From the NCBI GenBank assembly GCA_963758525.1, contig CAVWVQ010000003.1, forward strand, positions 2,848,001-2,912,000: a stretch of DNA of 64,000 nt. Direction: 5' to 3'. Below are positions 5,881 through 59,740 of this stretch, in pieces; the first letter of the stretch is position 1, and every line of letters begins with the position of its first letter. Position numbers and translations under genes: made by a program. Origin of the DNA: an uncultured Phycisphaerales bacterium. GTDB lineage: Bacteria > Planctomycetota > Phycisphaerae > Tepidisphaerales > Tepidisphaeraceae. The notes beneath the pieces were generated by a model. The model was given only the letters and a program-made list of their open reading frames with translations, searched no databases and was not told where the DNA came from.

Positions 5881-6065
5881 GAGTCCGCTTCCTGAACCGT
5901 AAAACCCCTCTTCGCGCGGGTATCTTCCGCGCGAGCGCGGTTCCCGTGCGCCGCTCATCCCAGAAAAACGGTCTTTTCAGATTGTTGCTAATGCCGGGGC
6001 ACGATCCGCTCGACGAAGAAGATGGCGCGACAAGCGCCCGGCGGACAGATAGAAGGAGATGGAAA

Positions 6066-6973
6066 ATGCCTCAAACGGTGTTGCTTGTGGACGACTCGAT
6101 TCCCCTTCACAAGCTGGTGCGCGCGCAGCTCGAGGCCGAGCCGGTGGAAGTCCACTCCGCCTACGACGGCGAAGCCGCTCTCAATGCCGCGGTTTCCCTC
6201 CGGCCGACACTGATCCTTCTTGACGTCGACATGCCTGAATTGGACGGCTTCGAGGTCTGCCGACGCCTTAAGGGCAATCCGCTCACTGCCTCGATTCCCG
6301 TCATTTTTCTCACCGCCAACTCGCTGGTTGGCGACAAGGTGCGCGGCTTTGATACCGGCGGTGCGGATTACGTCACCAAGCCGTTCAAGCCGGAGGAGTT
6401 GCGGGCCCGCGTGCGCGGCCCTTCGCGCCAAGCATCAGCTGGAGAAGACGTCGATGGTCGATGCCGCGACCGGCATGTGGAATCGCTCGTATCTGGATTT
6501 GCATCTCAAAGCGCAGCTCTCGCTCGCCCGCCGCAGCAACCGGCCGCTCTCTTGCCTGATGATTGAGATCGATCGCTTTACCACGATGGCCGCGACGCAC
6601 GGCGTCAACGCCGCGCAGGAAGCGATCCGCGGCATCGCCCGCATCTCGCTCAGCCAGGTTCGCGCCGAGGACCTGATCTGCCGGTACACCGATTCGAAAA
6701 TCATCGTTCTCGTCAACGGCGCAGAATCGCGCCGCCGCGTCGCGGGTGGCAGAACGCCTGCGGCATGAAATCGAGCGTCAACTGGCGGTCGTCGATGGCA
6801 TGCCGGTCGGGCTCACCTGCAGCATCGGGGTTTCCGATACGCTCGTTGCCTCCGATGAGGCGTTGGTCGATCGCGCCGACGCCGCTGTCTCACGTGCCCG
6901 CCAATGCGGGCGAAACGCCGTTTTTGTCGCGCGTCCTGCTGCCGATGAGGCACACGCGGTCGCCGTCGCCTGA
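6066..6973 (+). CDS. REC-GGDEF response regulator, degenerate active site, 2 frameshifts
   Basis: MPQTVLLVDDS REC domain continues in ORFs 6220-6768 and 6746-6973; the GGDEF position reads RAEDLICRYTDSKI. Confidence 0.75.
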
Positions 6974-8183: not shown

Positions 8184-10854
8184 ATGGAACGCCGCCTCAT
8201 CTTCATTCGCGGGATTGTGCAGGGCGTGGGCTTTCGTCCGTTTGTTTTTAACCTGGCGTCTCAACTGAGTCTCACCGGATTTGTCAGGAATGATGACGGG
8301 ACGGTGGCGATCGAGGTGGAGGGGGAGTCGGGCGCGCTGGATCGCTTCGCGACGGAACTTTCGGAGCATCCGCCGGCGCTGGCACGCATCGAATCAATCT
8401 CCAGTGCGTCGGTGCAACTCAAGGGGGAGCGGGAATTTCGGATTGAGACGAGCCGTGCGGGTGAATCGGGCGCGCAGCGATCGGTCTTCATCTCCCCGGA
8501 CGTCGCGACGTGCGACGATTGCCTGCGCGAACTGTTCGATCCGAAGGATCGCCGGTACCGCTATCCCTTCATCAACTGCACGAACTGCGGCCCGCGGCTC
8601 ACGATCGTCACGGGCGCACCCTACGACCGGCCGCGAACAACGATGGCGTTGTTCGCGATGTGCCGGCAATGTCAGGCGGAATACGACGACCCGCGCGACC
8701 GGCGGTTTCACGCGCAGCCGACGTGTTGCCCTCGATGCGGGCCGCAGTTGGAACTGCTCGATGCACAGGGGAAAACGGTCGCATCAGATGATCCGGTGAG
8801 AACGACAGCTGATGCACTTCGCGCGGGCGGGATTGTGGCGATCAAGGGGCTGGGCGGGTTTCATCTGGCGTGCAGCGCGCTCGACGACCAAGTGGTGCGC
8901 GCACTGCGGGAGCGGAAGCATCGTGACGAGAAGCCGTTCGCGATCATGGTTTCCAACGTTGCCGCGGCTCGCGTTTTGTGTGAGGTCGGGCCGGCGGAGG
9001 CGGGGCTGTTGCGATCCCCGTCGGCGCCGATTGTGCTTCTTGCGAGGAAGTCGCTTCAGCACCTCCTGTCGGCAGATGTCGACGGCGACGGTGATCTCAA
9101 AGATGGGCCGACTCTCGCAAACTTCCAAATCACCCTCACCCCAACCCTCTCCCGGGGTACCGGGAGAGGGGGAAATGAAACGGAGTCAAAGGGCGGGCAA
9201 TTCGTGGCGGATGCAGTTGCGCCGGGGAATCCGTCGCTGGGCGTGATGGTTCCGTATACGCCGTTGCATCATCTTTTGTTTGATGGAACCGGTGGACTCC
9301 CGCTGGTAATGACCAGCGGAAATCGGTCCGATGAGCCCATCGCATATGAGAACGACGACGCGGTCGCACGGCTCAGCGGGATCGCGGATCTGTTTCTCGT
9401 TCACAATCGGCCGATTCAGGTGCGGTGCGATGATTCGGTGACGCGGGTTGTTGTGGGGTTGGAGGCGAGCACGTCCCCCTCCCCTGGTACTCCGGGGGAG
9501 GGCCGGGGTGGGGGCCTGACGCGCGCGGATGCGCAGCCACCAAATTCCGCTCCCACGATCCTCTCGCGAATTACCACAATAGAGAGATCGAGCGATTCAG
9601 GCCATGGCTTTGAAGCTCTCGGCGGTGCAGCGGAACGCTCCGCGGCATCAGCACTCCGGTCGGAATTGCCAATCCGGCGATCGCGCGGCTATGCGCCGCA
9701 GCCGATCGCGATGCCCCTCGTATGTCGGCTTCCGATGCTGGCAGTGGGGGGGCAATTGAAGGGAACGGTTGCGCTGGGTCGCGATCGGCACGCGTTTGTG
9801 AGCCACCATTTGGGGGATCTCGACCACTACGAAGCGTTCAAGGCGTTCGAGCGCGACATCGCGTTGTACGAGCAACTTTTCGATGTGAAGCCTCGGCAGA
9901 TCGTTCACGATCTGCATCCCGATTATGCATCCACCGGCTATGCGATGCGGCGGGGCGCTGCGGAGAACGTGCGACTGATCGGCGTGCAGCATCATCATGC
10001 GCACATGGCTTCATGCATGGCGGAAAATCGTTTGGGCGGCCCGGTCATCGGCGTGAGTTTCGACGGCACGGGCTACGGCCTTGATGGAGCCGTGTGGGGC
10101 GGGGAATTTCTCATCGGGGATTATCGTACGTTTGAGCGGGCAGCGCATCTGCGCTACGTGCGGATGCCGGGAGCCGACACGGCAATTCGCGAGCCGTGGC
10201 GGATGGCGCTGGCCCACTTGCTGGATGCAGAGTGCGGCGACGCGGTGCTGCGCGACCGCATTTCGGAAAATATGTTGAAGACCGCACGGCAGATGATTTT
10301 GCGGGGTTTCAATTCGCCGCTGACCAGCAGCATGGGCCGGCTGTTCGACGCGGTCGCGGCGCTGGCGGGGGTACGCGATCGCGTGAGCTACGAGGGCCAA
10401 GCGGCCATCGAATTGGAGTGGCTGTGCGCGCGATTCGACGGTGGTTGGCACCTACCCTTTTGAAATCTATCCCGCGCTTTCGCAGGGTAAGGAAAAAAAA
10501 CAACCGTTGACTGTCGACCCGCGCCGCATGATAGAATGTGTGTGTGAGGAGATTCGCGAGGGAGCGAGTTCCTCTGCCGTGGCGCGACGCTTTCACTCGA
10601 CGGTGGTCGAAATAATTGTTCGGGTGTGCGAGCGTTTGCGGAACGATGGTGGACCTGGCGTGGTTGTTCTCAGCGGCGGAGTTTTCATGAACGTCCTGCT
10701 GACCAGTGAAACGATCGCGCGTTTGCACGGAGCCGGCTTCCGCGTCTACCGTCACCGTCTCGTCCCGCCCAACGACGCTGGACTCAGCCTTGGACAACTT
10801 GCCATTGCCGCCGCGCGGGACCGTGACCCTGCTTCTTCATCCAGACCGGAGTAA
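8184..10854 (+). CDS. hypF: Carbamoyltransferase HypF, one frameshift near 10430, two in-frame repeat-containing insertions
   Basis: GIVQGVGFRP, CxxC zinc fingers (NCTNCGPR, FHAQPTCCPRCGP), RRSRGYAP, QHHHAH, PPNDAGLSLGQ. Confidence 0.93.
9130..9172 (+). repeat. Palindromic repeat (CCCTCACCCCAACCCTCTCCC-GTAC-GGGAGAGGG family) inside hypF
   Basis: Near-identical to the intergenic copy at about 55410-55452; read in frame as ITLTPTLSRGTGRG. Confidence 0.85.
9474..9515 (-). repeat. Same palindromic repeat family, opposite orientation, inside hypF
   Basis: tcccctcccctggtactccgggggagggccggggtggggg, read as SPSPGTPGEGRGG. Confidence 0.8.
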
Positions 10855-10856
10855 CA

Positions 10857-11117
10857 ATGTGTCTGGCCATTCCGGGCAAGGTCATAGAGACGTACCACGA
10901 GCACGAGGTGCTCATGGGAAAAGTCGATTTCAGCGGCATCCTCAAGCGTGTCTGCCTGGAGCACGTCCCCAAAGCCAACGTCGGCGACTACGTGCTGGTG
11001 CATGTCGGCTTCGCGCTGCAATGCATCGATGAAGCTGAGGCTCGCCGTGTGTTCGAATTCCTGGATGACATGAATCAGTTGGACGAGTTACAAGCACCGT
11101 CCGACTCGTCACCATGA
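10857..11117 (+). CDS. hypC: Hydrogenase maturation chaperone HypC
   Basis: [18 protein letters not shown]. Confidence 0.95.
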
Positions 11118-12298
11118 AATATCTGGACGAATACCGCGATGCGTCCACGGCAAAAAGACTTGCCGACGCCATCGCCAAAACCGTCACGCGTCCATGGACG
11201 ATCATGGAAGTGTGCGGCGGGCAGACTCACACAATCGTCAAATACGGCATCGACGAAATCCTTCCGCCGCAAGTTGAACTGGTTCACGGCCCCGGTTGTC
11301 CGGTTTGCGTGACCAGCCTGGAAATGATCGACCGTGCCCACACGATCGCGTCCCGGCCGGAAGTGATCTTCTGCTCGTTTGGTGACATGCTGCGAGTTCC
11401 CGGCTCGCGGGAAGACCTGCTTTCGCTCAAGTCGAAAGGCGCCGATGTCCGCACGGTCTATTCTCCGCTGGATGCGGTGAATCTTGCCGCCGCCAATCCA
11501 ACGCGCAAGGTTGTGTTCTTTGCAATCGGTTTTGAAACGACAGCGCCGCCGAATGCGATGGCAGTGTGGCTGGCGCACAAGCGAAAGTTGATGAACTTCA
11601 GCGTTCTTGTCTCGCACGTGCTGGTGCCGCCATCAATGACGGCGATCCTTCAGGCGCCCGGCAACCGCGTGCAGGGGTTCTTGGGGCCCGGCCATGTCTG
11701 CACCGTGATGGGCTATGAAGAGTATTACCCGATTGCCGCGCACTATCGCGTGCCGATCGTCATCACCGGCTTTGAACCGATCGATATGCTCGAAGGGGTG
11801 CTGCTCACGATTCGACAGTTGGAAGAAGGGCGCGCCGAGGTTGAAAATCCCTACTCGCGAGCGGTGAAACCCAAGGGGAATGAGCAATCGCGCAAGCTGA
11901 TCGATGAGGTCTTTGAGGTGTGCGATCGCAAATGGCGCGGCGTCGGTCTGATCCCCAAAAGCGGCTACAAGCTGCGTTATGAATATCGGGATCACGACGC
12001 GGAGCGGATCTTCGCCGTCGAGGGGATTTCCGCGCAGGAATCGACCATCTGCATCAGCGGCCAGGTGCTGCGCGGCCTGAAAAAGCCCCACGACTGCGCG
12101 GCGTTTGGCACGACCTGCACCCCGCAGCGACCGCTGGGGGCGACGATGGTTTCCGCCGAAGGCGCCTGCGCGGCCTACTACGCTTACGGGCGGCATCTCG
12201 AAATAAGCCGAAAGAAGGATCAGTCCGGAAAGGGAAACGGAAATGGTAATGGACATGCGCTCCCGGTGTTGGAACCCCGTTTAGCCGCGACGCGCTAG
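11114..12298 (+). CDS. hypD: Hydrogenase formation protein HypD
   Basis: [39 protein letters not shown]. Confidence 0.95.
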
Positions 12299-12416
12299 CG
12301 GAGCGATTGGAATGGCTTCCAAGCGCTCCACTGACGCGTCGTGGTAAACCGGGCGGAAGCGCTCGAATGTTGTTGGGTCGCTTCGGCTTGCGAAGCGACG
12401 CTTGCGGAAGGGTTTC

Positions 12417-13049
12417 ATGACGGCAATTTCTGAGCGGAACGCACCCCCGACCTTCGCCCCCGGCGAACTAGCCGCGAAAGTGATGCGCCAATGCCGGGAA
12501 GTTATCGCGACAAAAGAGGAGTTTTTTGCGCAGAACGCCGAGAAGATCTCGCAATGTGCGACTGCGATGTCTGATGCATTTGCGAAGGGGGGCCGGCTTC
12601 TGGTCTTCGGAAATGGAGGCAGTTCCTGCGATGCCTTGCACATGGTTGTCGAGTGCATGCATCCGATCATTCAAAAACGCCCCGCGCTCCCGGCGATCGC
12701 GTTGAACAGTGACATGGCGACCCTTACAGCGATTGGGAACGATCAGGATTTTTCCCTGGCCTACGTGCAGCAGCTTCAAGTGCTCGCCCGGCCAGGCGAC
12801 ATGGCGATGGGATTTTCCACCAGCGGGAAGTCCGCCAACGTCAACCGCGCTCTGCGGGCGGCGCGCGAAATGGGACTGCTTACCGTCGGATGCAGCGGCC
12901 GGGACGGCGGACGAATGCCCGAGTTCTCCGATTATTCTTTTGTGGTGCGCAGTTTCAGTATTCCCAGAATCCAGGAAACGCAGGAAACTTTGCTCCATAT
13001 CCTGTGGGACCTTGTCCATGTGGTCCGTGGTGAGGAAGATGTGTTGTAA
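12417..13049 (+). CDS. gmhA: SIS-domain protein, phosphoheptose isomerase (GmhA)-like
   Basis: GNGGSSCDA, TAIGND, STSGKSAN, RIQE. Confidence 0.8.
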   Translation: MTAISERNAPPTFAPGELAAKVMRQCREVIATKEEFFAQNAEKISQCATAMSDAFAKGGRLLVFGNGGSSCDALHMVVECMHPIIQKRPALPAIALNSDMATLTAIGNDQDFSLAYVQQLQVLARPGDMAMGFSTSGKSANVNRALRAAREMGLLTVGCSGRDGGRMPEFSDYSFVVRSFSIPRIQETQETLLHILWDLVHVVRGEEDVL

Positions 13050-13066
13050 CCGGTAGGAAGTTTTGC

Positions 13067-14155
13067 ATGTCCACTGTTGCCGAAACGCTCGATCTCGCAA
13101 TGTTCGGCTCCTGCCCGCTCCCCAAATATGAATACGACCGCATCCTCCTGGGCCACGGCAGCGGCGGAGGACTGACGGCGGACCTCATTCAACGCCTCTT
13201 CCTTCCCGGTTTTTCCAACGCCACACTCAACGCGCTCGAAGACCAGGCGACGCTCACTCTTGAGAGAGATGCGACCGGCACTTCGCCGCGGATCGCGTTC
13301 ACCACCGACTCTTTCGTGGTCCGTCCCCTTTTCTTTCCCGGCGGGGATATCGGGAAGCTGGCCGTGCACGGCACGGTGAACGATCTTGCGGTCGGCGGCG
13401 CCAAGCCGCTGTTTCTCTCGGCCGCGTTCATTCTTGAAGAAGGGTTGCCGCTGGAGGATTTGCAGCGCATTGTCGCGTCGATGCGCCAGGCCTGCGACGA
13501 AGCAGGTGTCGCATTGGTCACCGGCGACACGAAAGTCGTCGATCGCGGCAAGGGAGATCAGGTCTTCATCACCACCTCCGGCATCGGGATCGTGCCGCAG
13601 GGGCGATCGCTCTCCATCCGCACCGCGCGGCCCGGGGATGTCATCATCGTCTCGGGAACGCTGGGCGATCACGGCATCGCGATCATGTCGCTGCGCGAAG
13701 GAATCGAATTTGAAACCGTGTTGGAGAGCGACACCGCCCCGCTCACCGATCTGGTGCGGGTGATGCTCGACGCTTGCCCCTCCATTCGCTGCATGCGCGA
13801 TCCGACCCGCGGCGGACTCTCCAGCGCGCTCAATGAACTGGCTGCCGCGTCGAATGTCGGCGTCGAATTGAACGAATCTGCGATTCCGCTCAAGGCGGAA
13901 GTGCGCGGCGCCTGCGAGATGCTCGGGCTGGACCCGTTGTACGTGGCCAATGAAGGGAAGTTGATCGCGGTGGTGCCCCCGGACCATGCGCCGCGCGTGC
14001 TTGACGCGATGCGCGCTCATCCGCTGGGCTGCAATGCGGCTGTCGTGGGGCATGTGGTGGAAGACCACAAAGGAATGGTCATTCTGAAATCGCTGGTGGG
14101 CGGCGCGCGCGTCGTCACCATGCTGGCTGGAGAACAGTTGCCCAGAATCTGTTGA
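13067..14155 (+). CDS. hypE: Hydrogenase maturation protein HypE
   Basis: HGSGG, TTDSFVV, GDTKVV, RDPTRGG, C-terminal LPRIC. Confidence 0.95.
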   Translation: MSTVAETLDLAMFGSCPLPKYEYDRILLGHGSGGGLTADLIQRLFLPGFSNATLNALEDQATLTLERDATGTSPRIAFTTDSFVVRPLFFPGGDIGKLAVHGTVNDLAVGGAKPLFLSAAFILEEGLPLEDLQRIVASMRQACDEAGVALVTGDTKVVDRGKGDQVFITTSGIGIVPQGRSLSIRTARPGDVIIVSGTLGDHGIAIMSLREGIEFETVLESDTAPLTDLVRVMLDACPSIRCMRDPTRGGLSSALNELAAASNVGVELNESAIPLKAEVRGACEMLGLDPLYVANEGKLIAVVPPDHAPRVLDAMRAHPLGCNAAVVGHVVEDHKGMVILKSLVGGARVVTMLAGEQLPRIC

Positions 14156-14214
14156 CCCAACACCCGGCCCCGCCCGCTCGACGCGCAAAGGCGGAGCAGA
14201 TCGGAGAAGTTCCC

Positions 14215-15294
14215 ATGGCAGAGCAAACCATCCCGTACGGCCGCAAGACGCAGAAGCCGTCGCCGGTCAAGGAAGTGCATGTGCTCTGGATTACTGCGGG
14301 CCTTGGTTGCGACGGCGATTCCGTCTCCATCACCGCGGCGACGCAGCCAAGCATTGAGGATGTGATCCTGGGAGCGATCCCCGGCCTTCCCAAGGTCCAC
14401 GTTCACAACCCCGTCCTTGCCTACGAGAACGGCGACGAATTCATGAGCTACTGGTACCAGGCGGATGAAGACCGCCTTGGAGCGCCGTTCGTGCTCGTCG
14501 TCGAAGGCTCGATTCCCAACGAAAAGATCAAGAGCGAGGGGTATTGGGCCGCGCTGGGAACCGACAAAAAGACCGGCCAGCCGATTACCACCTGCGAGTG
14601 GATCGACCGTCTGGCGCCCAAGGCGCTGGCGGTTGTCGCGATCGGAACCTGCGCAACCTACGGCGGAATTCACGCGATGCAGGGCAACCCCACCGGCGCA
14701 ATGGGCCTGGCCGATTATCTGGGCTGGGACTGGAAATCCAAGGCAGGGCTTCCCATCGTTAACGTTCCCGGTTGCCCGGTTCAGCCGGATAACTTCATGG
14801 AGACGCTGCTGTATCTGCTCTTCCAGGTATCCGGACTGGCGCCGATGATTCCGCTCGATTCGGAACTGCGGCCGACCTGGCTGTTTGGTAAGACGGTGCA
14901 CGAAGGGTGCGATCGCGCCGGCTACTACGAGCAGGGCGATTTTGCCAACGAATATGGGTCGCCCAAGTGCATCGTCAAGCTCGGTTGCTGGGGGCCGGTG
15001 GTCAACTGCAATGTGCCCAAGCGCGGATGGATGGCCGGCATCGGCGGCTGCCCCAACGTCGGCGGGATCTGCATCGGCTGCACCATGCCGGGCTTCCCTG
15101 ACAAATTCATGCCCTTCATGGACGAACCGCCCGGCGGAAAGCTCTCGAGTTCAACCATCAGCGTTTACGGCGCGATGATTCGCAAACTCCGCGGCATCAC
15201 TAACCACACCGTCAACAAAGAACCGAAGTGGCGGCACACCCGTCCCGAACTGACCACCGGTTATCACCCCACCTCCTACGGAAACAATCATTGA
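14215..15294 (+). CDS. hhyS: Group 1h [NiFe]-hydrogenase small subunit, no Tat signal
   Basis: WITAGLGCDGDS, GTCATYGG, PGCP, HEGCDR, GGICIGCTMPGFPD. Confidence 0.92.
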   Translation: MAEQTIPYGRKTQKPSPVKEVHVLWITAGLGCDGDSVSITAATQPSIEDVILGAIPGLPKVHVHNPVLAYENGDEFMSYWYQADEDRLGAPFVLVVEGSIPNEKIKSEGYWAALGTDKKTGQPITTCEWIDRLAPKALAVVAIGTCATYGGIHAMQGNPTGAMGLADYLGWDWKSKAGLPIVNVPGCPVQPDNFMETLLYLLFQVSGLAPMIPLDSELRPTWLFGKTVHEGCDRAGYYEQGDFANEYGSPKCIVKLGCWGPVVNCNVPKRGWMAGIGGCPNVGGICIGCTMPGFPDKFMPFMDEPPGGKLSSSTISVYGAMIRKLRGITNHTVNKEPKWRHTRPELTTGYHPTSYGNNH

Positions 15295-15307
15295 AAGGAC
15301 CCACGCC

Positions 15308-17110
15308 ATGACAACGATGACTGAACCTGTCAAAGCTTCGCCCCCCGCAACGGGGAAACTGGTCGAGATGTCGTGGGATCCGATCACCCGGATCGTCGGA
15401 AGCCTCGGCATCTATACGAAGATCGACTTTGACAAGAAAACCGTCGCCGAGTGCTACAGCACCTCGTCGATCTTCCGCGGCTACAGCATTTTCATGAAAG
15501 GGAAAGATCCCCGCGATGCCCACTTCATCACCAGCAGAATTTGCGGCATTTGCGGCGACAACCACGCCGTCTGCGCCAACTACGCGCAGAATATGGCGTT
15601 CGGCGTGAAGCCCCCCGCGATTGCCGAGTGGATCGTCAATCTCGGGGAAGCCGCCGAGTACATGTTCGACCACAACATCTTCCAGGACAATCTTGTCGGA
15701 GTCGACTTCTGCGAGCAGATGGTCAAGGAGACCAACCCTTCCGTCTTCGCCCGGGCGGAGCAGACCCTTGCCGCCGGGTCCAACCTCCATGGTTTCCGCA
15801 CCATCGCGGACATCATGCGGGCGCTGAACCCCTTCACCGGCGTGTTCTATCGCGAGGCGCTGGCGATGAGCCGGATGACGCGCGAGATGTTCTGCCTGAT
15901 GGAAGGACGTCACGTCCATCCCTCGACGCTCTATCCCGGCGGCGTGGGAACCGTGCCGACGATCCAGCTCTTCACCGACTACCTCGTACGGCTCATGAAG
16001 TACGTGGAGTTCATGAAGAAAGTCGTTCCGCTGCACGACGACCTGTTCGACTTCTTCTACGAGGCGCTGCCCGGCTACGAAGAAGTCGGCCGGCGCCGCA
16101 TTCTGCTCGGTTGCTGGGGATCGTTCCAGGATCCCAATTACTGCGACTACAAGTATGAGAACATGACCGCGTGGGGCCGTAAGATGTTTGTCACGCCCGG
16201 CGTGGTCGTGGACGGCAAGCTGGTGACCACTGATCTGGTCGACATCAATCTGAACATCCGCATTCTCCTGGGAAGCAGCTACTACGAAAGCTGGGAAGAG
16301 CAGGAGATGTTCGTGACCAAGGACCCGCTGGGCAATCCGGTGGATCGCAATCATCCCTGGAATCAGACCACCATCCCCAAGCCCCAAAAGCGCAATTTCA
16401 AGGGCAACTACACCTGGGTCATGTCTCCGCGCTGGCTGGACAAGCGCACCGGCGATCACCTCGCGCTCGACACCGGCGGCGGGCCGATCGCCCGCCTCTG
16501 GTCCACGGCGCTGGCCGGTCTGGTCGATTTCGGCTACGTCAAGTCCACCGGGCAGAGCGTCAAGATGTATCTGCCAAAGACGACGATGCTGCCGGAAGTT
16601 GAATTCGAGTGGAAGATACCCAAGTGGAGCAACGCGATCGAGCGCGATCGCGCTCGCACGTACTTCCAGGTCTATGCCGCCTGCTCGGCGCTCTATTTTG
16701 TCGAGCAGGCGCTCAAGGAGCTGCACGCCGGCCGAACCAAGACGTGGACTGAGTTCAAGGTGCCCGATGAAGCGATCGGCTGCGGTTTCCACGAGGCGGT
16801 CCGCGGCGTCCTCTCGCATCACGTGGTGATCCGTGAGGGCAAGATCGCCAATTATCATCCGTATCCCCCGACCCCGTGGAACGCCAACCCGCGCGACATT
16901 TACGGCACGCCCGGGCCTTACGAAGACGCTGTGCAGAACACGCCGATCTTCGAGGAAAACGGTCCGGACAAGTTCAAAGGGATCGACATCATGCGGGCCG
17001 TTCGCAGCTTCGATCCGTGTCTTCCCTGCGGCGTCCATATGTACGTCGGCAAGGGAAAGACGCTGGAAGTGCGGCACGCGCCCATGTTCGGCATGCAGCA
17101 GCATGGGTGA
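15308..17110 (+). CDS. hhyL: Group 1h [NiFe]-hydrogenase large subunit
   Basis: MSWDPITRIVGSLG; L1 motif TSRICGICGDNH; L2 motif SFDPCLPCGVH followed by a C-terminal extension. Confidence 0.93.
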   Translation: MTTMTEPVKASPPATGKLVEMSWDPITRIVGSLGIYTKIDFDKKTVAECYSTSSIFRGYSIFMKGKDPRDAHFITSRICGICGDNHAVCANYAQNMAFGVKPPAIAEWIVNLGEAAEYMFDHNIFQDNLVGVDFCEQMVKETNPSVFARAEQTLAAGSNLHGFRTIADIMRALNPFTGVFYREALAMSRMTREMFCLMEGRHVHPSTLYPGGVGTVPTIQLFTDYLVRLMKYVEFMKKVVPLHDDLFDFFYEALPGYEEVGRRRILLGCWGSFQDPNYCDYKYENMTAWGRKMFVTPGVVVDGKLVTTDLVDINLNIRILLGSSYYESWEEQEMFVTKDPLGNPVDRNHPWNQTTIPKPQKRNFKGNYTWVMSPRWLDKRTGDHLALDTGGGPIARLWSTALAGLVDFGYVKSTGQSVKMYLPKTTMLPEVEFEWKIPKWSNAIERDRARTYFQVYAACSALYFVEQALKELHAGRTKTWTEFKVPDEAIGCGFHEAVRGVLSHHVVIREGKIANYHPYPPTPWNANPRDIYGTPGPYEDAVQNTPIFEENGPDKFKGIDIMRAVRSFDPCLPCGVHMYVGKGKTLEVRHAPMFGMQQHG

Positions 17111-17143
17111 CGTGCCATGCATTGGGATCAGGCGTATCTGCAT

Positions 17144-17260
17144 TCCCCTCTCCCGGTACGCCGGGAGAGGGTCGGGGTGAGGGTGATTTCGAAGTCGAGT
17201 GCACGTGGTGCTCGAAGTCACCCTCATCCTAACCTTCGCCCGGGGTACCGGGAGAAGGGA
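17144..17260. repeat. Bipartite palindromic repeat, intergenic copy
   Basis: cccctctcccggtacgccgggagagggtcggggtgagggtga...tcaccctcatcctaaccttcgcccggggtaccgggagaaggg. Confidence 0.85.
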
Positions 17261-17335
17261 CCAGAAGCGGTCGCCGCCGGATGCGATTCCTTGCGACCCG
17301 CTGTGCGACGAGTCGTCATTACGCCAAGGTGAATT

Positions 17336-17914
17336 GTGCCCGATGAATCAGAAGGCGAGCTGCGCGGAAGAATGCAGAGGTTGGAGTCCCTTCTCACGGA
17401 AGTCGATGATGGCGCTGACCCCGCCACCAAAGCGAAGGTCCGCGAGATCGTTCAATCGCTGATGGACTATCACGGGGCGGCGATCGAGAAAATGGTGAGC
17501 GCGATGGCCAATGACGGGAATGGCGGCCGCGCCATGCTCGACAAGCTCGCCAACGACGAGTTGGTGGGCAGCGCGCTGTTGCTCTACGGGCTCCACCCGC
17601 TCGATATCGAGACGCGGGTGCAGACCGCCCTGGAAAAATCGCGGCCCTATCTGCGTTCGCACGGCGGCAACGTCGAGCTGCTGTCGATTGAGGACGGGAT
17701 CGTCAGGCTGCGGATGGAGGGAAGCTGCAAGGGCTGCCCTTCGTCGGCCATGACCATGAAATCAACGATCGAGAAGGCCATTTACGACGCGGCGCCGGAT
17801 GTATCCGCCATTGAGGTCGAAGGTGCGGTCGCAGCCGCGACTTCCAGCGACGAGAAAGCATTTGCACAACCCCCCGACCGGTCGCGTTTTGCTTTACCGG
17901 TTTTCAAAGGATGA
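17336..17914 (+). CDS. hhyE: NifU/NfuA-like Fe-S protein of group 1h clusters (HhyE-like)
   Basis: LLLYGLHP, RPYLRSHGGNVEL, GSCKGCPSS. Confidence 0.8.
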   Translation: MPDESEGELRGRMQRLESLLTEVDDGADPATKAKVREIVQSLMDYHGAAIEKMVSAMANDGNGGRAMLDKLANDELVGSALLLYGLHPLDIETRVQTALEKSRPYLRSHGGNVELLSIEDGIVRLRMEGSCKGCPSSAMTMKSTIEKAIYDAAPDVSAIEVEGAVAAATSSDEKAFAQPPDRSRFALPVFKG

Positions 17915-18642
17915 GCGAATCCCCAAATATGGTGGCACTGCCCCAACAGCCCGGCCAAAAGCCGTTCGACGTGTTGCGACGATTTGCGCGGCGGCGCAAC
18001 GCCGAAGAACGATGCGAATTGTGCGGGGCGGACATCGCCCGCGAGCACGAGCATCTGGTCGAAGTGGCCAATCGCAAGCTGCTCTGTGCGTGCGGCGCGT
18101 GCGCCATTCTCTTCAGCGGCCAGCAGAGCCCGCGATATCGCCGAGTCCCGCGAACGGTGCGATGGCTCCAACGTTTTGAGATGACCGACGCGCAATGGGA
18201 AAGCCTCAGCGTGCCGATCAACCTGGCCTTTTTCTTTCAGAGCACCCCGGCGGCGCGCGTCTGCGCGTTCTATCCGAGCCCGGCAGGGCCGACCGAATCT
18301 CTGCTGCCGCTCGAATCGTGGCACGAACTGGTCGCGATCAATCCCGTGCTGAAAACGATGGAGCCGGATGTCGAGGCGCTATTGGTCAACCGCGTGGGGG
18401 ACGATCACAACTACTACCTGGTTCCAATCGACAAATGTTATGAGCTTGTCGGGCTGATTCGATTAAAGTGGGCGGGGCTGTCAGGAGGCACTGAAGTCTG
18501 GCGCGAGATCACGCGGTTTTTCGCGGAGCTGCGCGAGATCCAATCCGAACCCAAGCCCGCCCGCGGCCCAACCCTCCCCCGGAGCACCGGGCGAGGAAGA
18601 ACGAAACCTTCCTGCAGTGTCGCGCCCCAATGGCTGATCTGA
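17911..18642 (+). CDS. hhaA: Conserved group 1h accessory protein (DUF5947/HhaA-like); its C-terminus includes a repeat copy at about 18567-18600
   Basis: ERCELCG, CACGAC, YPSPAGPTES, PIDKCYELVG, GLSGG. Confidence 0.75.
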   Translation: MSESPNMVALPQQPGQKPFDVLRRFARRRNAEERCELCGADIAREHEHLVEVANRKLLCACGACAILFSGQQSPRYRRVPRTVRWLQRFEMTDAQWESLSVPINLAFFFQSTPAARVCAFYPSPAGPTESLLPLESWHELVAINPVLKTMEPDVEALLVNRVGDDHNYYLVPIDKCYELVGLIRLKWAGLSGGTEVWREITRFFAELREIQSEPKPARGPTLPRSTGRGRTKPSCSVAPQWLI

Positions 18643-19280
18643 ATTTCCACGTCGAGTTTGCCGAAGCGATGCCCTTCGCTGCCGCCCCGCAGTTGATCTT
18701 CAAACTCCGGGTGACCGACGCGGAGAATACGGCTCCGATTCACGCCATCGCATTGCGCTGTCAGATTCGCATCGAGCCCGCCAAACGCCGCTACTCTCCT
18801 GGCGAGCAGGGCATGCTTCCTGACTTGTTCGGCCCGCCGAGCCGCTGGGGTCAGACGCTGCGGCCGATGCTCTGGACCCACGCCGCCGTGGTCGTCCCGC
18901 CCTTTTCCGGCAGCACGCTGGTGGATCTTCCCGTGCCCTGCAGTTACGACCTGACCCTTGGCGCTACCAAGTATTTCTACGCGCTGGAGGAGGGGGAAGT
19001 GCCGTTGGTTCTGCTCTTCAGCGGAACGATTTTCTACGGAACGCAGGACGGCGGCATGCAGGTGGGACAGATTTCCTGGGAGAAAGAGGCCGCGTACCGC
19101 CTGCCGATCGATGTCTGGACAAAGATGATGGACCTCTATTATCCCAACGTCGCCTGGCTCTGCCTGCGGAAAGACGTGTTTAACCGGCTGTCACAATACA
19201 AGTCGCAACGCGCGATCCCGACATGGGAGCAGGCCGTGGAAGAATTGCTCTGCCAGGCAGACGAAGGGGTGGTGCCATGA
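18630..19280 (+). CDS. hhaB: Conserved group 1h accessory protein (DUF6084/HhaB-like)
   Basis: LRCQIRIEPAKRRY, DLFG..RWG, PCSYD, LLFSGTIFY. Confidence 0.75.
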   Translation: MADLNFHVEFAEAMPFAAAPQLIFKLRVTDAENTAPIHAIALRCQIRIEPAKRRYSPGEQGMLPDLFGPPSRWGQTLRPMLWTHAAVVVPPFSGSTLVDLPVPCSYDLTLGATKYFYALEEGEVPLVLLFSGTIFYGTQDGGMQVGQISWEKEAAYRLPIDVWTKMMDLYYPNVAWLCLRKDVFNRLSQYKSQRAIPTWEQAVEELLCQADEGVVP

Positions 19281-20485
19281 ATCGAGAGTTGCTTGAGAAG
19301 ATCGTCAATGCCGTCTTGTATGAAGGGTACATTCTCTACCCGTATCGTCCGTCGGTGAAAAATCACCAGCGATGGACTTTCGGTGGCCTCTATCCGGAAA
19401 GCTGCGATCTGGTCCGGCAGGGAGCCGAGTCGTGCGTGATGCAGACGCAATGTCTGGTCGAGGGTCCCGCGGCAACCTTGCTGCGGGCGAGCGTGCGTTT
19501 TTTGCACCTGACGACGCGAGTGGTCGGCGAACTGCCAGAGCCGGTGGACGAATTGCCCGCCAGCGGAGTTTCCGCCCTTTCCCCCTCTCCTGGTACTCCG
19601 GGAGAGGGCTGGGGTGAGGGTGATTTCGAACGTCGAAAGGCTTTCGACGCGGAGAATCACCCTCAAGATGCCCCTCTCCCGCAGTACCAGGAGAGGGAAC
19701 GGCAAAGCATGCACCTGGGCTACCGCCCGGTCGATTCTCTTCGCGTGGGCGGCAAGATCTATCAGACATGGCAGGAGGCAAGCGAGCGCGAAGTTGCAGT
19801 CGAATCCTTCACGCTCGGCCGGCTGACGCAGAGCACCATGACTCATCCCTTTGCGTTTTCCCCCAGCGAGGAAATCGAACCGTTGCGCAGGGAGGACGGG
19901 AGAATTGTTGCCGTGCTGGTGCGCCGCCAGGAAGCGCTCGGCGGAGTTGCTGAGTTGTCGGCCGCGAAGAAGGCGGATGATCTCTTCCAGATTAGTGTGC
20001 GCGTGATCAATCTATCGCCGATGCCGGGTCCGCAGAGCATGCCGCGCGACGCCGCCCAGTTGTATTCGCTGGCCTCCACGCACACGATCCTGAGCGTCGA
20101 AGGCGGCGCGTTTGCCTCGTCAATCGATCCGCCTCCCGGTTGTCTGCCTTTTGCCGGCGAGCTGCGCAACATCGGCTCCTGGCCGGTGCTCGTCGGCGTC
20201 GAGCCGGATCGCGATACCGTGCTTGCGTCCCCGATTATCCTCTATGACTATCCGCAGATTGCGCCGGAGAGTCCGGGCAATCTGTACGATTCCACCGAGA
20301 TCGACGAAATCCTGAGCTTGCGGATCATGACGCTTACCGACGATGAAAAACTCGCCGTTGCCGGGTCGGATGAGGGCGCGGCACGGATTCTCCAGCGCAC
20401 CGATGCGCTGGGACAGGACCAGATGGCGTCGCTCCACGGAACCTTGCGTGGGCTTCGGACAGTTGCCGGCGGAGACAAATCATGA
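19277..20485 (+). CDS. hhaC: Conserved group 1h accessory protein (HhaC-like) with an in-frame repeat insertion
   Basis: AVLYEGYILYPYR, RWTFGG, SPIILYDYPQIAPESPG..DSTEIDEIL. Confidence 0.75.
   Translation: MNRELLEKIVNAVLYEGYILYPYRPSVKNHQRWTFGGLYPESCDLVRQGAESCVMQTQCLVEGPAATLLRASVRFLHLTTRVVGELPEPVDELPASGVSALSPSPGTPGEGWGEGDFERRKAFDAENHPQDAPLPQYQERERQSMHLGYRPVDSLRVGGKIYQTWQEASEREVAVESFTLGRLTQSTMTHPFAFSPSEEIEPLRREDGRIVAVLVRRQEALGGVAELSAAKKADDLFQISVRVINLSPMPGPQSMPRDAAQLYSLASTHTILSVEGGAFASSIDPPPGCLPFAGELRNIGSWPVLVGVEPDRDTVLASPIILYDYPQIAPESPGNLYDSTEIDEILSLRIMTLTDDEKLAVAGSDEGAARILQRTDALGQDQMASLHGTLRGLRTVAGGDKS
19580..19697. repeat. Bipartite palindromic repeat inside the hhaC-like gene
   Basis: ccccctctcctggtactccgggagagggctggggtgagggtga...tcaccctc...cccctctcccgcagtaccaggagaggg. 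Confidence 0.85.
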
Positions 20486-20807
20486 ACGACTGGGATCCGA
20501 TGGCCGAAAAACGTGAGCTTGAGAGCGCGCTCTCGGCCGGCATCGAATTGAAGCGCGGCGACCGCGTTGTCCTGCGCCGCGCGGCAACGCGGATATCTTC
20601 GATCTGGCCCTGGCCGGGAAGATCGCCACAATCGCTTCCATCGAACAGGATTTCGAGAACAAGATTCATCTTGCGGTTACAATCGACGATGATCCGGGCC
20701 GGGATTTTGGACACACCGGGCAGCCGGGGCATCGTTTCTTTTTTGGGGTGGATGAAGTCGAGCTGGCGCCGGATCGGCGCGACGCATCTTCTGAACAGGT
20801 GTCCTAA
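20482..20807 (+). CDS. Small conserved hydrogenase-cluster protein, one frameshift near 20578
   Basis: GDRVVLR, then in a shifted frame ADIFDLALAGKIATIASIEQDFE...DDDPGRD...HRFFF, ending TAA at 20807. Confidence 0.65.
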
Positions 20808-20841
20808 TGGCCGCAATTTAGGCCGCTGAAGGAGTCTTATC

Positions 20842-21075
20842 ATGAATGAAAACCTTGATCCGCAGGCTGCAGAGGCGAGAGATGTGCTGTGCGTCGCGGG
20901 GGGAATGGCATTGCTGCTGATGGGCGTTGGGCTGGTGATGACACACCCGCAGGTCCGAAAAACGGTGCTCGATGGCGTGTCGCGATTTGTCCCCGATCTG
21001 GCCGGATCGCTCAAGAACGGCCTCGCGGGAATCCTGCCCGACGTGGAGCGTTATCTTAAAGTGCGCTCGATGTAA
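20842..21075 (+). CDS. Small single-TM protein ending LPDVERYLKVRSM (DUF6893-like tail)
   Basis: AGGAG RBS; hydrophobic stretch; C-terminal motif shared with 22200-22358. Confidence 0.7.
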   Translation: MNENLDPQAAEARDVLCVAGGMALLLMGVGLVMTHPQVRKTVLDGVSRFVPDLAGSLKNGLAGILPDVERYLKVRSM

Positions 21076-21104
21076 TCCCCGGTTCCGCGAAAGGAAGCGA
21101 CCAG

Positions 21105-21667
21105 GTGACTCGATACGCTTTTGACTCCTCTCGCAGCCGTTTTACTGTTCAGGCATTTGCCAGCGGGATGCTCTGGGCGTTCGCCCACAATCCGACGATT
21201 GCAATCAAGGACTTCACCGGCAATCTCAATTTTTCCCCTGCGCCGGGGACAAGCCAGCGCTCGACCTGGTGGTCAATGCCCATTCGCTCGAGTCGGTCGA
21301 TCCGATTCGATTGAAGGACAAGCAGGAGATTCAGGACACCATGATGGAGATGCTCGATGTGGCCACCTATCCGATGGTGCGCTACAAGGCCACCGATGCC
21401 ACCGTCACCCAGCTCTCCGACAGTTGGTTCCGCGTGCAGTTCAAGGGGCATTTGTCGCTGCGCGGCGTCACCAAGGCCGAGGAGGTGGACGCACAGCTCA
21501 CCCTGCTTGAAGGTGAGGTCCGTCTCAGCGGTTCGTTTCAGATACTCCAATCGCATTATAAAATTCATCGTCCGTCCGCGGCCGCCGGGCTGCTGATCAC
21601 CAAGGACGAGCTGAAGTTTACATTCGACGTCCATGGAACCATCGCTCCCGAGGGAGGCGCCGCGTGA
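21105..21667 (+). CDS. YceI-like lipid/polyisoprenoid-binding protein, one frameshift, no signal peptide
   Basis: SRFTVQAF..G...HNP; MLDVATYPMVRY; GHLSLRGVTK; KDELKFTFDV. Confidence 0.75.
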
Positions 21668-22215
21668 GCGCGCCGCGGATCCTCATCGCCTGCATCGGGA
21701 ATATCTTTTTGGGAGACGATGCATTCGGCGTCGAGGTGGCCCGTCTGCTGGCGCAGGTTCCCTGGCCCGACAGCATCCACGTCGAGGACTTTGGCATTCG
21801 CGGCGTCGATTTGGCCTACGCGTTGCTTAATAATTACGATGTTGCAATTTTCGTGGACGCAAGCCAGCAGGGCCACGCGCCGGGAACGCTTTTTGTTCTT
21901 GAGCCGGATCTGGCTCCAGTTCTTGCAGACGCCGCCGCGATGGAGACGTCCATTGATGCACATAGCATGGACCCGGCCAAGGTGCTTCGGACCGCGGCGT
22001 CCATGGGCGGAAAGATCCCGCGGGTTTTTGTGGTGGGCTGCGAACCTTCCCCGCTGCCGGGCGACGACGAGGTCGCGTTGGAACTGAGCCCCCCAGTGAG
22101 AGCGGCAGTGCCGCTCGCGGTCCCGATGATCCGCGATCTGGTCCATCGGATCCTCTCCAAAAGCCTGCTTTCGAACGAGGCACAACAGGAGATATCGTCA
22201 TGCTCACCGATATGA
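21664..22215 (+). CDS. Hydrogenase maturation endopeptidase (HupD/HybD family)
   Basis: GNIFLGDDAFG, DFGIRG, VDA, DAHSMDP, VGCEP. Confidence 0.9.
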   Translation: MSAPRILIACIGNIFLGDDAFGVEVARLLAQVPWPDSIHVEDFGIRGVDLAYALLNNYDVAIFVDASQQGHAPGTLFVLEPDLAPVLADAAAMETSIDAHSMDPAKVLRTAASMGGKIPRVFVVGCEPSPLPGDDEVALELSPPVRAAVPLAVPMIRDLVHRILSKSLLSNEAQQEISSCSPI

Positions 22216-22358
22216 AAGTGCTCGCAAACGCGAGCGATGTCATGTCCCGCCTCAATGGCTGGGAAATCAGTGGAATCATTGCGGCCGTGCTCGTTGCGGG
22301 CGTGGCCATCTGGATGCTGCCGGAGCTCATTCGCTACATGAAGATCCGCCATATGTGA
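22200..22358 (+). CDS. 52-aa single-TM small protein (DUF6893-like), not in the ORF track
   Basis: CAGGAG RBS; translates to MLTDMKVLANASDVMSRLNGWEISGIIAAVLVAGVAIWMLPELIRYMKIRHM; fills the gap between the protease and hypA. Confidence 0.75.
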   Translation: MLTDMKVLANASDVMSRLNGWEISGIIAAVLVAGVAIWMLPELIRYMKIRHM

Positions 22359-22370
22359 CCGCGGGGACGC

Positions 22371-22718
22371 ATGCATGAATTATCGATCGCGATGTCGATC
22401 GTCGAGACTGCGATCGAACAGGCCGAGAGTCTCGGCGGCGCCAAGGTGCTGGCAGTCCATCTCAAACTTGGGCCCCTTTGCGGCGTCGTCAAGGAAGCGT
22501 TGCTCGGGTCATACGAACTGGCTGCTGAAAACACCGAGCTGGCCGGTTCGAGATTGGTCATTGTGGAGACGGAGTTGCGGGCATATTGTCCAAATTGCGC
22601 GGTGGAACGCGCCGTCGTGTCCACGACGGACATATCCTGCGTTGAATGCGGCACGCCCACCCCTGAAATTACCAGCGGCAGAGAACTCGAAGTCACTGCA
22701 ATGGAGATTCGCGAATGA
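22371..22718 (+). CDS. hypA: Nickel metallochaperone HypA
   Basis: MHELSI, CPNC, CVECG, GREL. Confidence 0.95.
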   Translation: MHELSIAMSIVETAIEQAESLGGAKVLAVHLKLGPLCGVVKEALLGSYELAAENTELAGSRLVIVETELRAYCPNCAVERAVVSTTDISCVECGTPTPEITSGRELEVTAMEIRE

Positions 22719-23407
22719 GTCAGCAAACCCGCCTCGTTGAGGTGCGCCAGCAGGTCCTCAAGCAGAACGATGTCGTCGCCCGCGCACTCCGCGATCGCTT
22801 TCGCAGCGCCGGCGTGTTCGTCGTCAGTCTTGTCTCGAGTCCCGGCTCGGGAAAAACGGCGTTTCTCGAAAAAACACTGACCATGCTTCGCGAGGAATTT
22901 CGCGTCGCGGCCCTTGTGGGTGATCTTGCCACCGACAACGACGCGCGCCGATTGGCCCGCAGCGAAACGCCGGTAAAGCAGATCACCACCGGCACACTGT
23001 GTCATCTCGAAGCCGAGATGGTGCGCGCCGCCCTGAATGGCTGGAACGAAAGCGAGCTGGATTTTCTGTTTATCGAAAACGTCGGCAATCTCGTCTGTCC
23101 CGCGACCTTCGATCTGGGGGAGGACATGCGGCTGGTGCTCTTCTCGACCACCGAGGGCGAGGATAAGCCGCTGAAATACCCGACGATCTTCAACAGCGCC
23201 GACGTGGCGATCATCACCAAGATCGACCTTGCCGACGCTGTCGAATTCGATCGCGGCGCGGCCCATCGAAACATCCAGTCGGTCCGGCCAGGGATGGAGA
23301 TCATGGAAGTGTCGTCCAAGTCCGGCCAGGGCATGGAGGAATTCCTCCGCTTCCTGCGCACGCGCCGCCGCGAGGCACGCGGTGAGGCGGTTGCCGCCGC
23401 GCGATGA
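22715..23407 (+). CDS. hypB: Nickel-incorporation GTPase HypB
   Basis: SSPGSGKT, CHLEA, ENVGNLVCPA, EGEDKPLKYP. Confidence 0.95.
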   Translation: MSQQTRLVEVRQQVLKQNDVVARALRDRFRSAGVFVVSLVSSPGSGKTAFLEKTLTMLREEFRVAALVGDLATDNDARRLARSETPVKQITTGTLCHLEAEMVRAALNGWNESELDFLFIENVGNLVCPATFDLGEDMRLVLFSTTEGEDKPLKYPTIFNSADVAIITKIDLADAVEFDRGAAHRNIQSVRPGMEIMEVSSKSGQGMEEFLRFLRTRRREARGEAVAAAR

Positions 23408-24672: not shown

Positions 24673-24696
24673 AGGAAATACGGGCTCTCTTCACTC

Positions 24697-24760
24697 CTGA
24701 ACCCTGAACCCTGAACCCTGAACCCTGAACCCTGAACCCTGAACCCTGAACCCTGACACC
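24697..24760. repeat. Heptamer tandem repeat (CTGAACC)x8 plus a CTGACACC variant
   Basis: Read directly from the sequence. Confidence 0.95.
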
Positions 24761-24841
24761 CTCAACCCTCGCTTTGCCGAACTTAAGTCAAATGATTCTG
24801 CCCTGCTTGCCGCCGACAGCGTCATCCGTGGTTCAATCTCT

Positions 24842-28051: not shown

Positions 28052-28744
28052 ATGGCCCGTAAACCCCGATTCTCCCCCGGCGGCTTGGCGTATCACGTGA
28101 TGAACCGCACTCCGGGGAAGGTCAAGCTGTTCGAGGATGATGGAGACTATCAGGCGTTTGAGAAGGTGCTGATCGAGGCGATCGATCTGCATCGGGGAAT
28201 ACGGCTCTGCGCCTATTGCCTGATGCCCAACCACTTTCATCTGGTGCTCTATCCCAAGACCGACGGCCAATTGTCCCGCTTCATGCAGTGGCTCACCATG
28301 ACCCACGCGGCCCGCTGGCATGCCCATCGCCACAGTGTCGGGCGCGGGCATCTGTATCAGGGCCGCTTCCGGAGCTTCCCGATTCAGCGGGACGGGCATT
28401 TCCTGAGTGTCTGCCGGTATGTGGAGCGGAATGCGCTGCGGGCCAGTCTCGTGGCCAAGGCGCAGGACTGGCGATGGGGTTCGCTCTGGGCGAGGGATGA
28501 CCGCAGCAGCGCGATCGCCCGGTTTCTGGCGCCCTGGCCGGTGGAGATGCCAGGGAGATGGGTGACTCTGGTCAATCGGGCGGAAAGCGAGGTAGAGCTG
28601 GCCGCGTTGCGCCGCGCGGTTGCTCGCGGCCGTCCCTACGGCGATGATCGCTGGTCGCAGCGGACGGCCAAGGCGCTGGGCAGTGACAGCTCGTTGCGCC
28701 CGATCGGCCGGCCGAAGAAATCGAAGCCGCCGAGGAAGGGCTGA
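28052..28744 (+). CDS. REP-associated tyrosine transposase (RAYT/Y1 HUH family)
   Basis: YHVMNR, AYCLMPNHFHL (HUH), GHLYQGRFRS, RYVERN, WRWGS. Confidence 0.88.
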   Translation: MARKPRFSPGGLAYHVMNRTPGKVKLFEDDGDYQAFEKVLIEAIDLHRGIRLCAYCLMPNHFHLVLYPKTDGQLSRFMQWLTMTHAARWHAHRHSVGRGHLYQGRFRSFPIQRDGHFLSVCRYVERNALRASLVAKAQDWRWGSLWARDDRSSAIARFLAPWPVEMPGRWVTLVNRAESEVELAALRRAVARGRPYGDDRWSQRTAKALGSDSSLRPIGRPKKSKPPRKG

Positions 28745-32030: not shown

Positions 32031-32575
32031 CTGCCAGCTTCTTCACCATCCAAGTTCTCTGGTTTACGCTGCGTTCCCATGGCTCGAAGGCTGCGATCCT
32101 CGGTCGACGGTCAGGTCTTTCATGTGCCGAAGCACGTGCCGAAATATTACATCTTCCGTTCCGCCCCCCACCTCGATCTTCCCCCTGAGTACGAGGGGAG
32201 GAGGTAGGAGGATGAATTCGAGCACCGAATAAGCGGCAATGCATATCTGTTGCTTGTCGTAAGGCAAGCGATTTTTTGTTATTTACGCATCGCTCGAATA
32301 CGTAAAATTCTGTAAAGTTGTGTAAAGCCAATCGCTGATTCCGAGCGGCAAACGAGGGTTGACCGCCCGGCGGTCACTCCCGTTGTCCCGGATTGTAAAG
32401 CGGCTGTTTGCCCCCTTGCAGCCCGTGGTAAAAGTTCCCGCGCGCGCGGGACTTGCTTGCGGCTTCGGGCCGGGCTCTTCGTTGTCGAGATTCGCCCGCA
32501 TCGTCGCCGGGTATCCGACGACTTCGGCAAATCTGTCCTTGCAAGTCTCAGTAACAGGTTGTGAAATCGGACGGA

Positions 32576-51784: not shown

Positions 51785-52389
51785 ATCTCGCGGAACTGCG
51801 GCCCAAGGGACTGGTCATGGTGGTGGACGATGAGCCGCGCATGCGCGAGTTGCTGGTTCGCGCACTGACGCAATGGGGATTTGGCGTCAGCTCGGCCCGG
51901 AGTGGTGAAGAGGCGTTTCGCATGGCCGAGACGAGCGCGCCGGAGATCGTGCTGCTCGATCTGAACTTGCCGGGGATGGACGGACTCGAATGCTTCGCAC
52001 GGCTGAAGGAGAAGTTGCCGCGCGTTCAGGGAATTGTTCTGACAGGCTTTGCCAGCGTTGAGTCAGCCCGGCAGGCCGTGCACCTGGAGCTGGTGGAGTT
52101 TTTGACCAAGCCGTGTCATTTGGGCGAATTGGAAACTGCGCTTGACCGCGCGATGCGTCGGCTGATGCCAACGAAGAACACCCCGACGCCCGCGGCGCTG
52201 CACGCGCCAGGCGCGGCGGGCACTGCCACGGGGATGACGCTTGATGAGATGGAGCGCGAGCATATCCTCGCGACGCTGGAGCGCAATGACGGGAATCGCA
52301 CCGCGTCCGCGGCCGCGCTGGGAATCAGCCGGCGAACGCTTTATTACAAGCTTGAGGAATACCAGCGGCAGGGGCATGCCGTGAGGTGA
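51781..52389 (+). CDS. Response regulator, REC plus Fis-type HTH, no AAA+ domain
   Basis: LLDLNLPG; LGISRRTLYYKL. Confidence 0.88.
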   Translation: MNLAELRPKGLVMVVDDEPRMRELLVRALTQWGFGVSSARSGEEAFRMAETSAPEIVLLDLNLPGMDGLECFARLKEKLPRVQGIVLTGFASVESARQAVHLELVEFLTKPCHLGELETALDRAMRRLMPTKNTPTPAALHAPGAAGTATGMTLDEMEREHILATLERNDGNRTASAAALGISRRTLYYKLEEYQRQGHAVR

Positions 52390-52396
52390 GGGAGGG

Positions 52397-52610: not shown

Positions 52611-52622
52611 CATCTGCCGTGC

Positions 52623-55301: not shown

Positions 55302-55335
55302 GAGGGCAATCGCATGTGGACAAAACCGGCTCTGG

Positions 55336-55452: not shown

Positions 55453-55547
55453 GCAGAAGCCACATGCGATCGCCCTGCCCATGCCACGGCGACGCAGCTC
55501 AGAGCGTTGGAATCAATCCGCACCGGCGAGTACGATGGTTGCTTCCA

Positions 55548-59735: not shown

Positions 59736-59740
59736 GGCAG

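Follow-up and report, generated by a model that had tools for sequence, protein, structure and literature searches.

A palindromic repeat probably translated within hydrogenase cluster genes of a Phycisphaerales bacterium, and its probable partnership with DUF559 nuclease cassettes

The stretch under study, here called the window, comprises 64,000 nucleotides (nt) from an uncultured Phycisphaerales bacterium (G000:C3:2848001-2912000), whose genome (G000) amounts to 6.47 Mb at 61% GC in six contigs. The window contains a NiFe hydrogenase cluster (8184-23407) in which a palindromic repeat lies both between genes and inside them. The order of the cluster is hypF, hypC, hypD, a gmhA-like gene, hypE, the small and large subunits, a NifU-like gene, DUF5947, DUF6084, a conserved gene at 19277-20485, a YceI-like gene, a maturation protease, hypA and hypB. 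The same gene order is found in G001 and G002, two genomes of the same genus. The repeat has spread to 265 loci of the genome, likely as a non-autonomous companion to a cassette that has a DUF559 gene between two of the same arms, and the copies within genes are likely to be translated as disordered loops.

Each arm, about 45 nt long, has a purine/pyrimidine tail of the AAATCACCCTCACCCCAA type and then a hairpin of 11 bp whose loop is 4 nt. Two subfamilies are distinguished by their stems, CCCTCTCCC and CCCTCCCCC. Arms usually pair tail-to-tail to give a fold-back of about 120 nt, with the arms as terminal inverted repeats of approximately 45-50 nt each. A hidden Markov model search of the genome returned 381 arms at the 265 loci and none in the reversed-genome control, well beyond chance, and the repeat seen in the initial annotation is genuine. 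Inverted pairs with the tails inward account for 97 loci and single arms for 157. The stem-loop resembles repeats of the repetitive extragenic palindromic (REP) kind in being 20-40 bp long, high in copy number and mostly intergenic, with inverted dimers. Among 144 arms examined for a terminal tag, GTAG was recorded close to an end in 8 and CGTC/GACG in at most 9.

Three copies in the window fall between called coding segments, at the places first reported (about 17144, 32160 and 55336). The inverted pair at 17143-17264 (arms 17143-17192(-) and 17212-17264(+)) is a full element of about 120 nt with a fold-back z-score of -8.6; it sits between the large subunit gene and the NifU-like gene, a junction without the repeat in G001 and G002. 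A single arm of the CCCCCACC...CCCTCCCCC subfamily is located at 32165-32208(+). A second inverted pair at 55333-55456 (arms 55333-55384(-) and 55406-55456(+); z -11.3) lies between divergent genes. Across the genome, 49 non-coding loci are found between divergent genes and 29 between convergent genes by rough gene calls, a distribution from which classical REPs differ.

Within the cluster, hypF carries two inserts of the repeat. The first part of the gene (8184-10463, + strand) encodes the N-terminal three quarters of the protein (TIGR00143, E 5e-211, profile positions 2-635). Insert sizes were measured against the orthologues of G001. Insert 1 (9054-9197, + strand) adds 48 amino acids (aa) at about residues 291-338, in a loop of the YrdC-like domain, and has a decayed left arm and an intact right arm at 9125-9176(+). 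Insert 2 (9468-9668, + strand) adds 67 aa at about residues 429-495, near the YrdC/Kae1 boundary; its left arm is intact at 9473-9515(-), its right arm (about 9545-9585) is decayed, and extra sequence is present. These segments had been recognised in the initial annotation, where their peptides were quoted correctly and their sizes were put somewhat lower, at roughly 45 and 60 aa. Both are whole inverted pairs with one arm decayed, with local alignment scores against intact pairs of up to 119 and 90, compared with shuffle maxima of about 44-53.

Both segments are missing from the HypF orthologues of G001 and G002 and from the HypF structures 3VTH and 4G9I in the PDB. An AlphaFold2 model of HypF, built on 27 sequences, has a mean predicted local distance difference test score (pLDDT) of 83.8. 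The score falls below 50 only at residues 300-338, at 426-491 and at the cut C-terminal end, which puts the inserts in loops predicted to be disordered. Such surviving inserts are probably passengers of neutral effect and not a source of new function in HypF.

Long loops at these sites are also found in relatives. Among 106 HypF homologues, including that of the window (14 of 120 matches were excluded with unmatched anchor motifs), the site-1 loop exceeds 25 aa in 11 (median 11 aa) and the site-2 loop exceeds 22 aa in four (median 9). The long loops often hold related hairpin peptides. The relatives P0002 and P0003 have the same repeat at the same loops together with intact C-termini, and the HypF of genome G056 has an insert at one further site. 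Insertions recur in the HypF loops, which serve as tolerant sites used repeatedly. Inserts resembling other repeat families were seen in the homologues P0003, P0039, P0059, P0064, P0069 and L019, also at further loops, and at site 2 of P0003 two different repeats stand side by side.

A third internal insert is a full inverted pair in frame at 19577-19698 (+ strand; arms 19577-19629(-) and 19654-19698(+); z -9.9). It adds 48 aa to the conserved gene at 19277-20485(+), which was first labelled hhaC-like, has no Pfam match and is syntenic in G001 and G002. This pair is still intact and is probably the youngest of the three internal inserts. A fourth copy, a single decayed arm at 18567-18600(+), lies at the 3′ end of the DUF5947 gene (17911-18642, + strand), in a tail that is not conserved. 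In G001 and G002 the stop of this gene overlaps the start of the next. Here a net 64 nt, not a multiple of three, has been added at the junction, another stop is used and the protein is 23 aa longer at its C-terminus. Of the four in-frame coding insertions originally proposed, three therefore hold, and the fourth is a tail extension at the 3′ end. The labels hhaA-like and hhaC-like are those of the initial annotation; of the three genes concerned, the first matched DUF5947 and the second DUF6084. The DUF6084 gene (18630-19280, + strand) has no insert.

All three internal inserts are stop-free and keep the frame, and they are very probably translated loops. A rival explanation is that the inserts are missing from the mature proteins, the long RNA fold-back being spliced out or bypassed by the ribosome. 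Intact pairs in the window do form very stable 120-nt hairpins, with z-scores of -8.6 to -11.3. However, the HypF inserts persist although their long fold-back has been lost (z -3.3 and -2.2), and neither the open frames of the internal inserts nor the strong preference for one peptide frame described below suits removal of the segment. An Rfam scan of window 9000-20000 gave only chance hairpin matches, far under the gathering scores. Splicing or bypass is accordingly very improbable.

A second rival holds that the hydrogenase cluster, or at least hypF, is a decaying pseudogene region which has collected repeats since selection was lost. The hypF frame is indeed broken: it stops at 10463, and the C-terminal part (profile positions 641-740, the final 100) continues in a different frame at 10441-10854(+), with the frameshift at about 10430-10450, near a (GC)n run at about 10425-10450. 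In addition, P0005, a relative bearing an arm at site 2, is cut short at 434 aa. The density of the repeat also favours decay, with five loci in 10.6 kb against at most three in any of 473 fixed tiles, in a stretch picked after the fact. This density is moderately unusual, which agrees in part with the first impression that four insertions in one operon were unusual; only three of these are internal, and the HypF loops are recurrent landing sites.

Against decay, 144 well-conserved G001 genes were drawn from 21 stretches (about 420 kb of the 5.4-Mb G001 genome), and 26 of their orthologues in G000, hypF included, were broken into different frames. Assembly errors would therefore be expected to split a gene of 2.6 kb, and the hypF frameshift is probably one of these. 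The invariant columns and residues of HypF are kept, and the insert-bearing P0002 and P0003 reach intact C-termini. The remaining cluster genes are intact, including hypC, hypD, the gmhA-like gene, hypE and both subunits (10857-17110, + strand; syntenic in G001 and G002), and the three internal inserts all keep frame. Pseudogene decay is thus improbable. The assembly is indel-prone, and frameshift findings in G000 need caution; response-regulator/GGDEF open reading frames (ORFs) at window 5946-6768 also appear split. The gmhA-like gene, which encodes a SIS domain (12402-13049), is conserved between hypD and hypE in G001 and G002.

Genome-wide, 22 of the 265 loci lie within called coding segments (about 9% coding) against 60% of random intervals, and a test based on the flanks alone placed 18 of 265 loci in coding sequence against 214 of 600 random sites; these counts are approximate, as they come from a simple dicodon gene caller on an indel-prone assembly. 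An earlier classifier was replaced since it passed only 37% of random sites and overlooked the hypF copies, and its 23 "frame-disrupting" candidates were left unused, being confounded by assembly indels and ordinary intergenic sites. The hosts of in-frame inserts include IleRS (ileS), ValRS (valS), TsaD (tsaD), Dus (dus), HsdM (hsdM) and PutA (putA), with an MBL hydrolase, a DUF4011 helicase, an M48 peptidase, an MMPL protein and a GH43 protein as further hosts. The ileS and tsaD genes with inserts are the sole copies found in G000. One coding candidate, C3:1210797, was rejected as a DUF559 cassette running into its neighbour, with no insert in a host gene. The DUF4011 helicase (L068:3323-8730; G000:C3:3988322-3993729) contains at least three separate inserts of the repeat, one with tandemly amplified arms.

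The coding copies are strongly biased in reading frame. By the flank-only test, PSPGTPGEG is the reading of 10 of the 11 hairpin-first arms, PLPWYS is that of one, and the hydrophobic PPLPVLRERVGVRV is never used (binomial P 5e-4); in the union of lists PSPGTPGEG accounts for 13 of 14. The PPLPVLRERVGVRV frame is free of stops in 127 of 169 cases, compared with 110 of 169 for the PSPGTPGEG frame. Frames were classed by eye from the peptides because automatic labels were noisy, and two hairpin-only copies (ileS, dus) were excluded as ambiguous. The simplest cause of the bias is selection on the translated peptide; a phased target-sequence preference is a lesser rival that could explain part of it. 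The bias, together with orthologue comparison, structure prediction and inserts in single-copy essential genes, supports a process like that of the Rickettsia palindromic elements (RPEs), in which repeat DNA supplies additional loops to proteins.

No fewer than five further repeat families were observed in G000, each with a few in-frame copies. A GTAG-type REP has 171 loci with one coding, GCGTCGCGG 63 with one, CACGGGTT 36 with three, GTGGCACGGG 31 with two, and TTCAGGG arrays 36 with one. Heptamer arrays in the window, at 52383-52623, 24696-24769 and 59738-59825, consist of TCTCAAA/TCTCAGA and of CCTGAAC with its reverse complement; the first (TCTCAAA/TCTCAGA) is laid out as an inverted block.

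The candidate partner of the repeat was recognised from its position. Two stand-alone DUF559 genes are present in G000, one intact (C3:1103306-1103629) and one frameshifted (C3:1210856-1211138), and each stands between arms oriented as in the empty pairs. The chance of such bracketing for random 330-nt intervals is 5e-5 each. The bracketed gene matches PF04480 (E 4e-33) and the PDB entry 3HRL (E 4e-22). Three weaker DUF559 matches in the genome, partial or inside larger proteins, are unbracketed. This link was absent from the initial annotation, as were the hypF frameshift and the build of the HypF inserts as inverted pairs with one decayed arm. In the part of PMC3424549 consulted, DUF559 is placed alongside Vsr and a group I intron homing endonuclease. 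No paper linking DUF559 to repeats was found among titles and the starts of abstracts, subscription journals lying outside this coverage, and a motif search of the literature returned one unrelated paper only.

The association extends across the class, in which 33 genomes had DUF559 matches. The best DUF559 locus is bracketed by the same hairpin type in 26 of 30 genomes, G000 among them, against 1 of 167 control windows; with a generic hairpin finder the figures are 23 of 30 loci and 20 of 223 controls. The arm pattern is present at least four times in 25 of 33 DUF559-positive genomes and in 13 of 118 DUF559-negative genomes (151 genomes, in which kin are not independent). The hairpin variant of each cassette is also dispersed in its own genome, with three copies in G030, 15 in G114, 14 in G105, 18 in G084 and 63 in G056, and it is absent in 17 of 20 cross-genome cells. 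Genome G114 has two cassettes with two variants (15 and 90 copies), of which the 90-copy variant matches the second DUF559 gene. At locus L031 (G039:C31:14862-15179) a hairpin-bracketed DUF559 is contained within an open frame of 1272 aa; it seems that an entire cassette is read in frame there as part of a larger gene.

These patterns suggest that DUF559 is probably the mobiliser of the repeat. The arm-DUF559-arm unit would then be autonomous, and the empty pairs and single arms would be its derivatives. The DUF559 protein would recognise the arms and cut at or near the hairpins, and both cassette and empty pairs would be copied to new sites, as the REP-associated tyrosine transposase (RAYT) does for the paired REPs known as REPINs, without target duplication. 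Insertions which break the frame, strike the protein core or give the hydrophobic frame would be purged. Surviving genic copies would be those in frame, in tolerant loops and in the disordered frame, and their arms would decay one by one. It is an even chance that DUF559 proteins act as transposases in bacterial mobile elements of a class not yet described. In such an element a Vsr-like PD-(D/E)XK nuclease would stand between hairpin arms and, with no target duplication, spread both itself and its empty derivatives of 120 nt; within this lineage, P/G/E-rich loops would go on being seeded in essential proteins (IleRS, ValRS, TsaD and HypF), with selection filtering for the disordered frame.

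The main alternative to DUF559 as mobiliser is that the repeat is an ordinary REP-type sequence whose spread depends on a Y1 (RAYT-like) transposase or on gene conversion. DUF559 would then be captured cargo or a user of the hairpins as regulatory ends, and the in-frame inserts would be as described above. The genome does have 23 matches to Y1_Tnp (PF01797), and the absence of target-site duplication suits insertion of the HUH type. The pairs also resemble REPINs as described in the part of PMC3337134 consulted. However, none of the 23 Y1 matches is bracketed and one has a single weak arm; on this ground the Y1 transposases were ruled out as the partner gene. The scarcity of GTAG and CGTC tags among the arms also speaks against an ordinary REP, and throughout the class DUF559 is almost always bracketed, with variants that match. 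The alternative is rather unlikely. One of the 23 matches (G000:C3:2876085-2876432) belongs to a Y1 transposase-like gene in the window (28070-28690), which the repeat does not flank.

Several observations nevertheless weigh against DUF559 as the mobiliser and against the translated inserts as described, in addition to the approximate coding counts and the possible phased target preference. In the draft genomes of the class, the 13 repeat-rich genomes of the DUF559-negative set lack a DUF559 match at E<=1e-15, which also favours the REP-type alternative. Three of the 20 off-diagonal cells are non-zero, and one of these is G056, with 55 copies of the G105 variant untraced to a cassette. Outside the class, only 7 of 21 DUF559 loci are bracketed on both sides and 12 of 21 have an upstream hairpin, by a pattern tuned to the class; these loci come from alphaproteobacteria, Chloroflexota, Bacteroidota and two Phycisphaerales. 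The mean longest direct repeat at 86 pairs is 3.14, compared with 3.18 in shuffled-pair controls, and so shows no target-site duplication. Finally, hypF and one of the two DUF559 copies are frameshifted in the G000 assembly.

The repeat shares several features with the RPEs. According to Ogata (2000, 2002), as summarised in the passages of PMC10969869 consulted, RPEs are about 150 bp long and nearly half of them lie in ORFs. As in those accounts, palindromic repeats are found here in frame in unrelated housekeeping genes, with a recurring peptide and predicted compatibility with the fold. However, the arms are about 45 nt and the pairs about 120 nt, no more than about 9% of loci fall in coding sequence, and the host genome is 6.5 Mb, in contrast to the reduced genomes of RPE hosts. 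The repeat also brackets DUF559 genes, whereas those passages name no mobilising enzyme for RPEs. No RPE model is among the NCBIfam matches listed for the window proteins (for HypF, the best 25 families), a comparison at protein level with no direct DNA comparison made. The RPE-like process put forward at first is retained for the probably translated loops, and membership of the RPE family is not supported: unit size, the coding share and the missing CGTC/GTAG tag set the repeat apart.

A likeness is also seen to the GTAG/CGTC REPs of Di Nocera (2013; PMC3733652, text and supplements consulted in part). These occur as monomers and inverted dimers, most of them between genes and a smaller share in frame inside genes, tRNA synthetases among these, and double insertions in a single ORF are known, as here. 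Additional file 3 of the same source records a REP at residues 3-9 of HypF in Opitutus terrae. In-frame insertion of repeats is thus already known, and the HypF inserts alone are a fresh example and no surprise. The present repeat differs in its lack of a terminal GTAG/CGTC tag and in its partner gene, DUF559 in place of a Y1 tyrosine transposase. Its stem sequence was not found in the text and supplements searched; the consensus figures lay outside the search and may bear on whether it is listed there.

Similar to REPIN-RAYT systems, REPtrons and TIRtrons, as far as they are described in the parts of PMC3733652 and PMC3337134 consulted, a small enzyme gene stands between inverted hairpins and many gene-less pairs are dispersed, with variants matched to the flanked gene. 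The enzyme here is a PD-(D/E)XK Vsr-like nuclease (PF04480) and not an HUH/Y1 transposase. The terminal inverted repeats recall miniature inverted-repeat transposable elements, the non-autonomous members of class II, from which the 86 pairs differ in having no target-site duplication. Published REP families are associated with a Y1 transposase or have no enzyme assigned to them, and for the CGTC repeats PMC3733652 leaves the enzyme open. Against this background, position, phyletic pattern and sequence variant all link the present repeat to an enzyme of another class, DUF559, and the frame bias is a measurable sign of selection acting on the translated peptide. The arm as substrate and DUF559 as an enzyme of about 120-150 aa offer a concrete pair for probing the spread of a very common kind of bacterial repeat.

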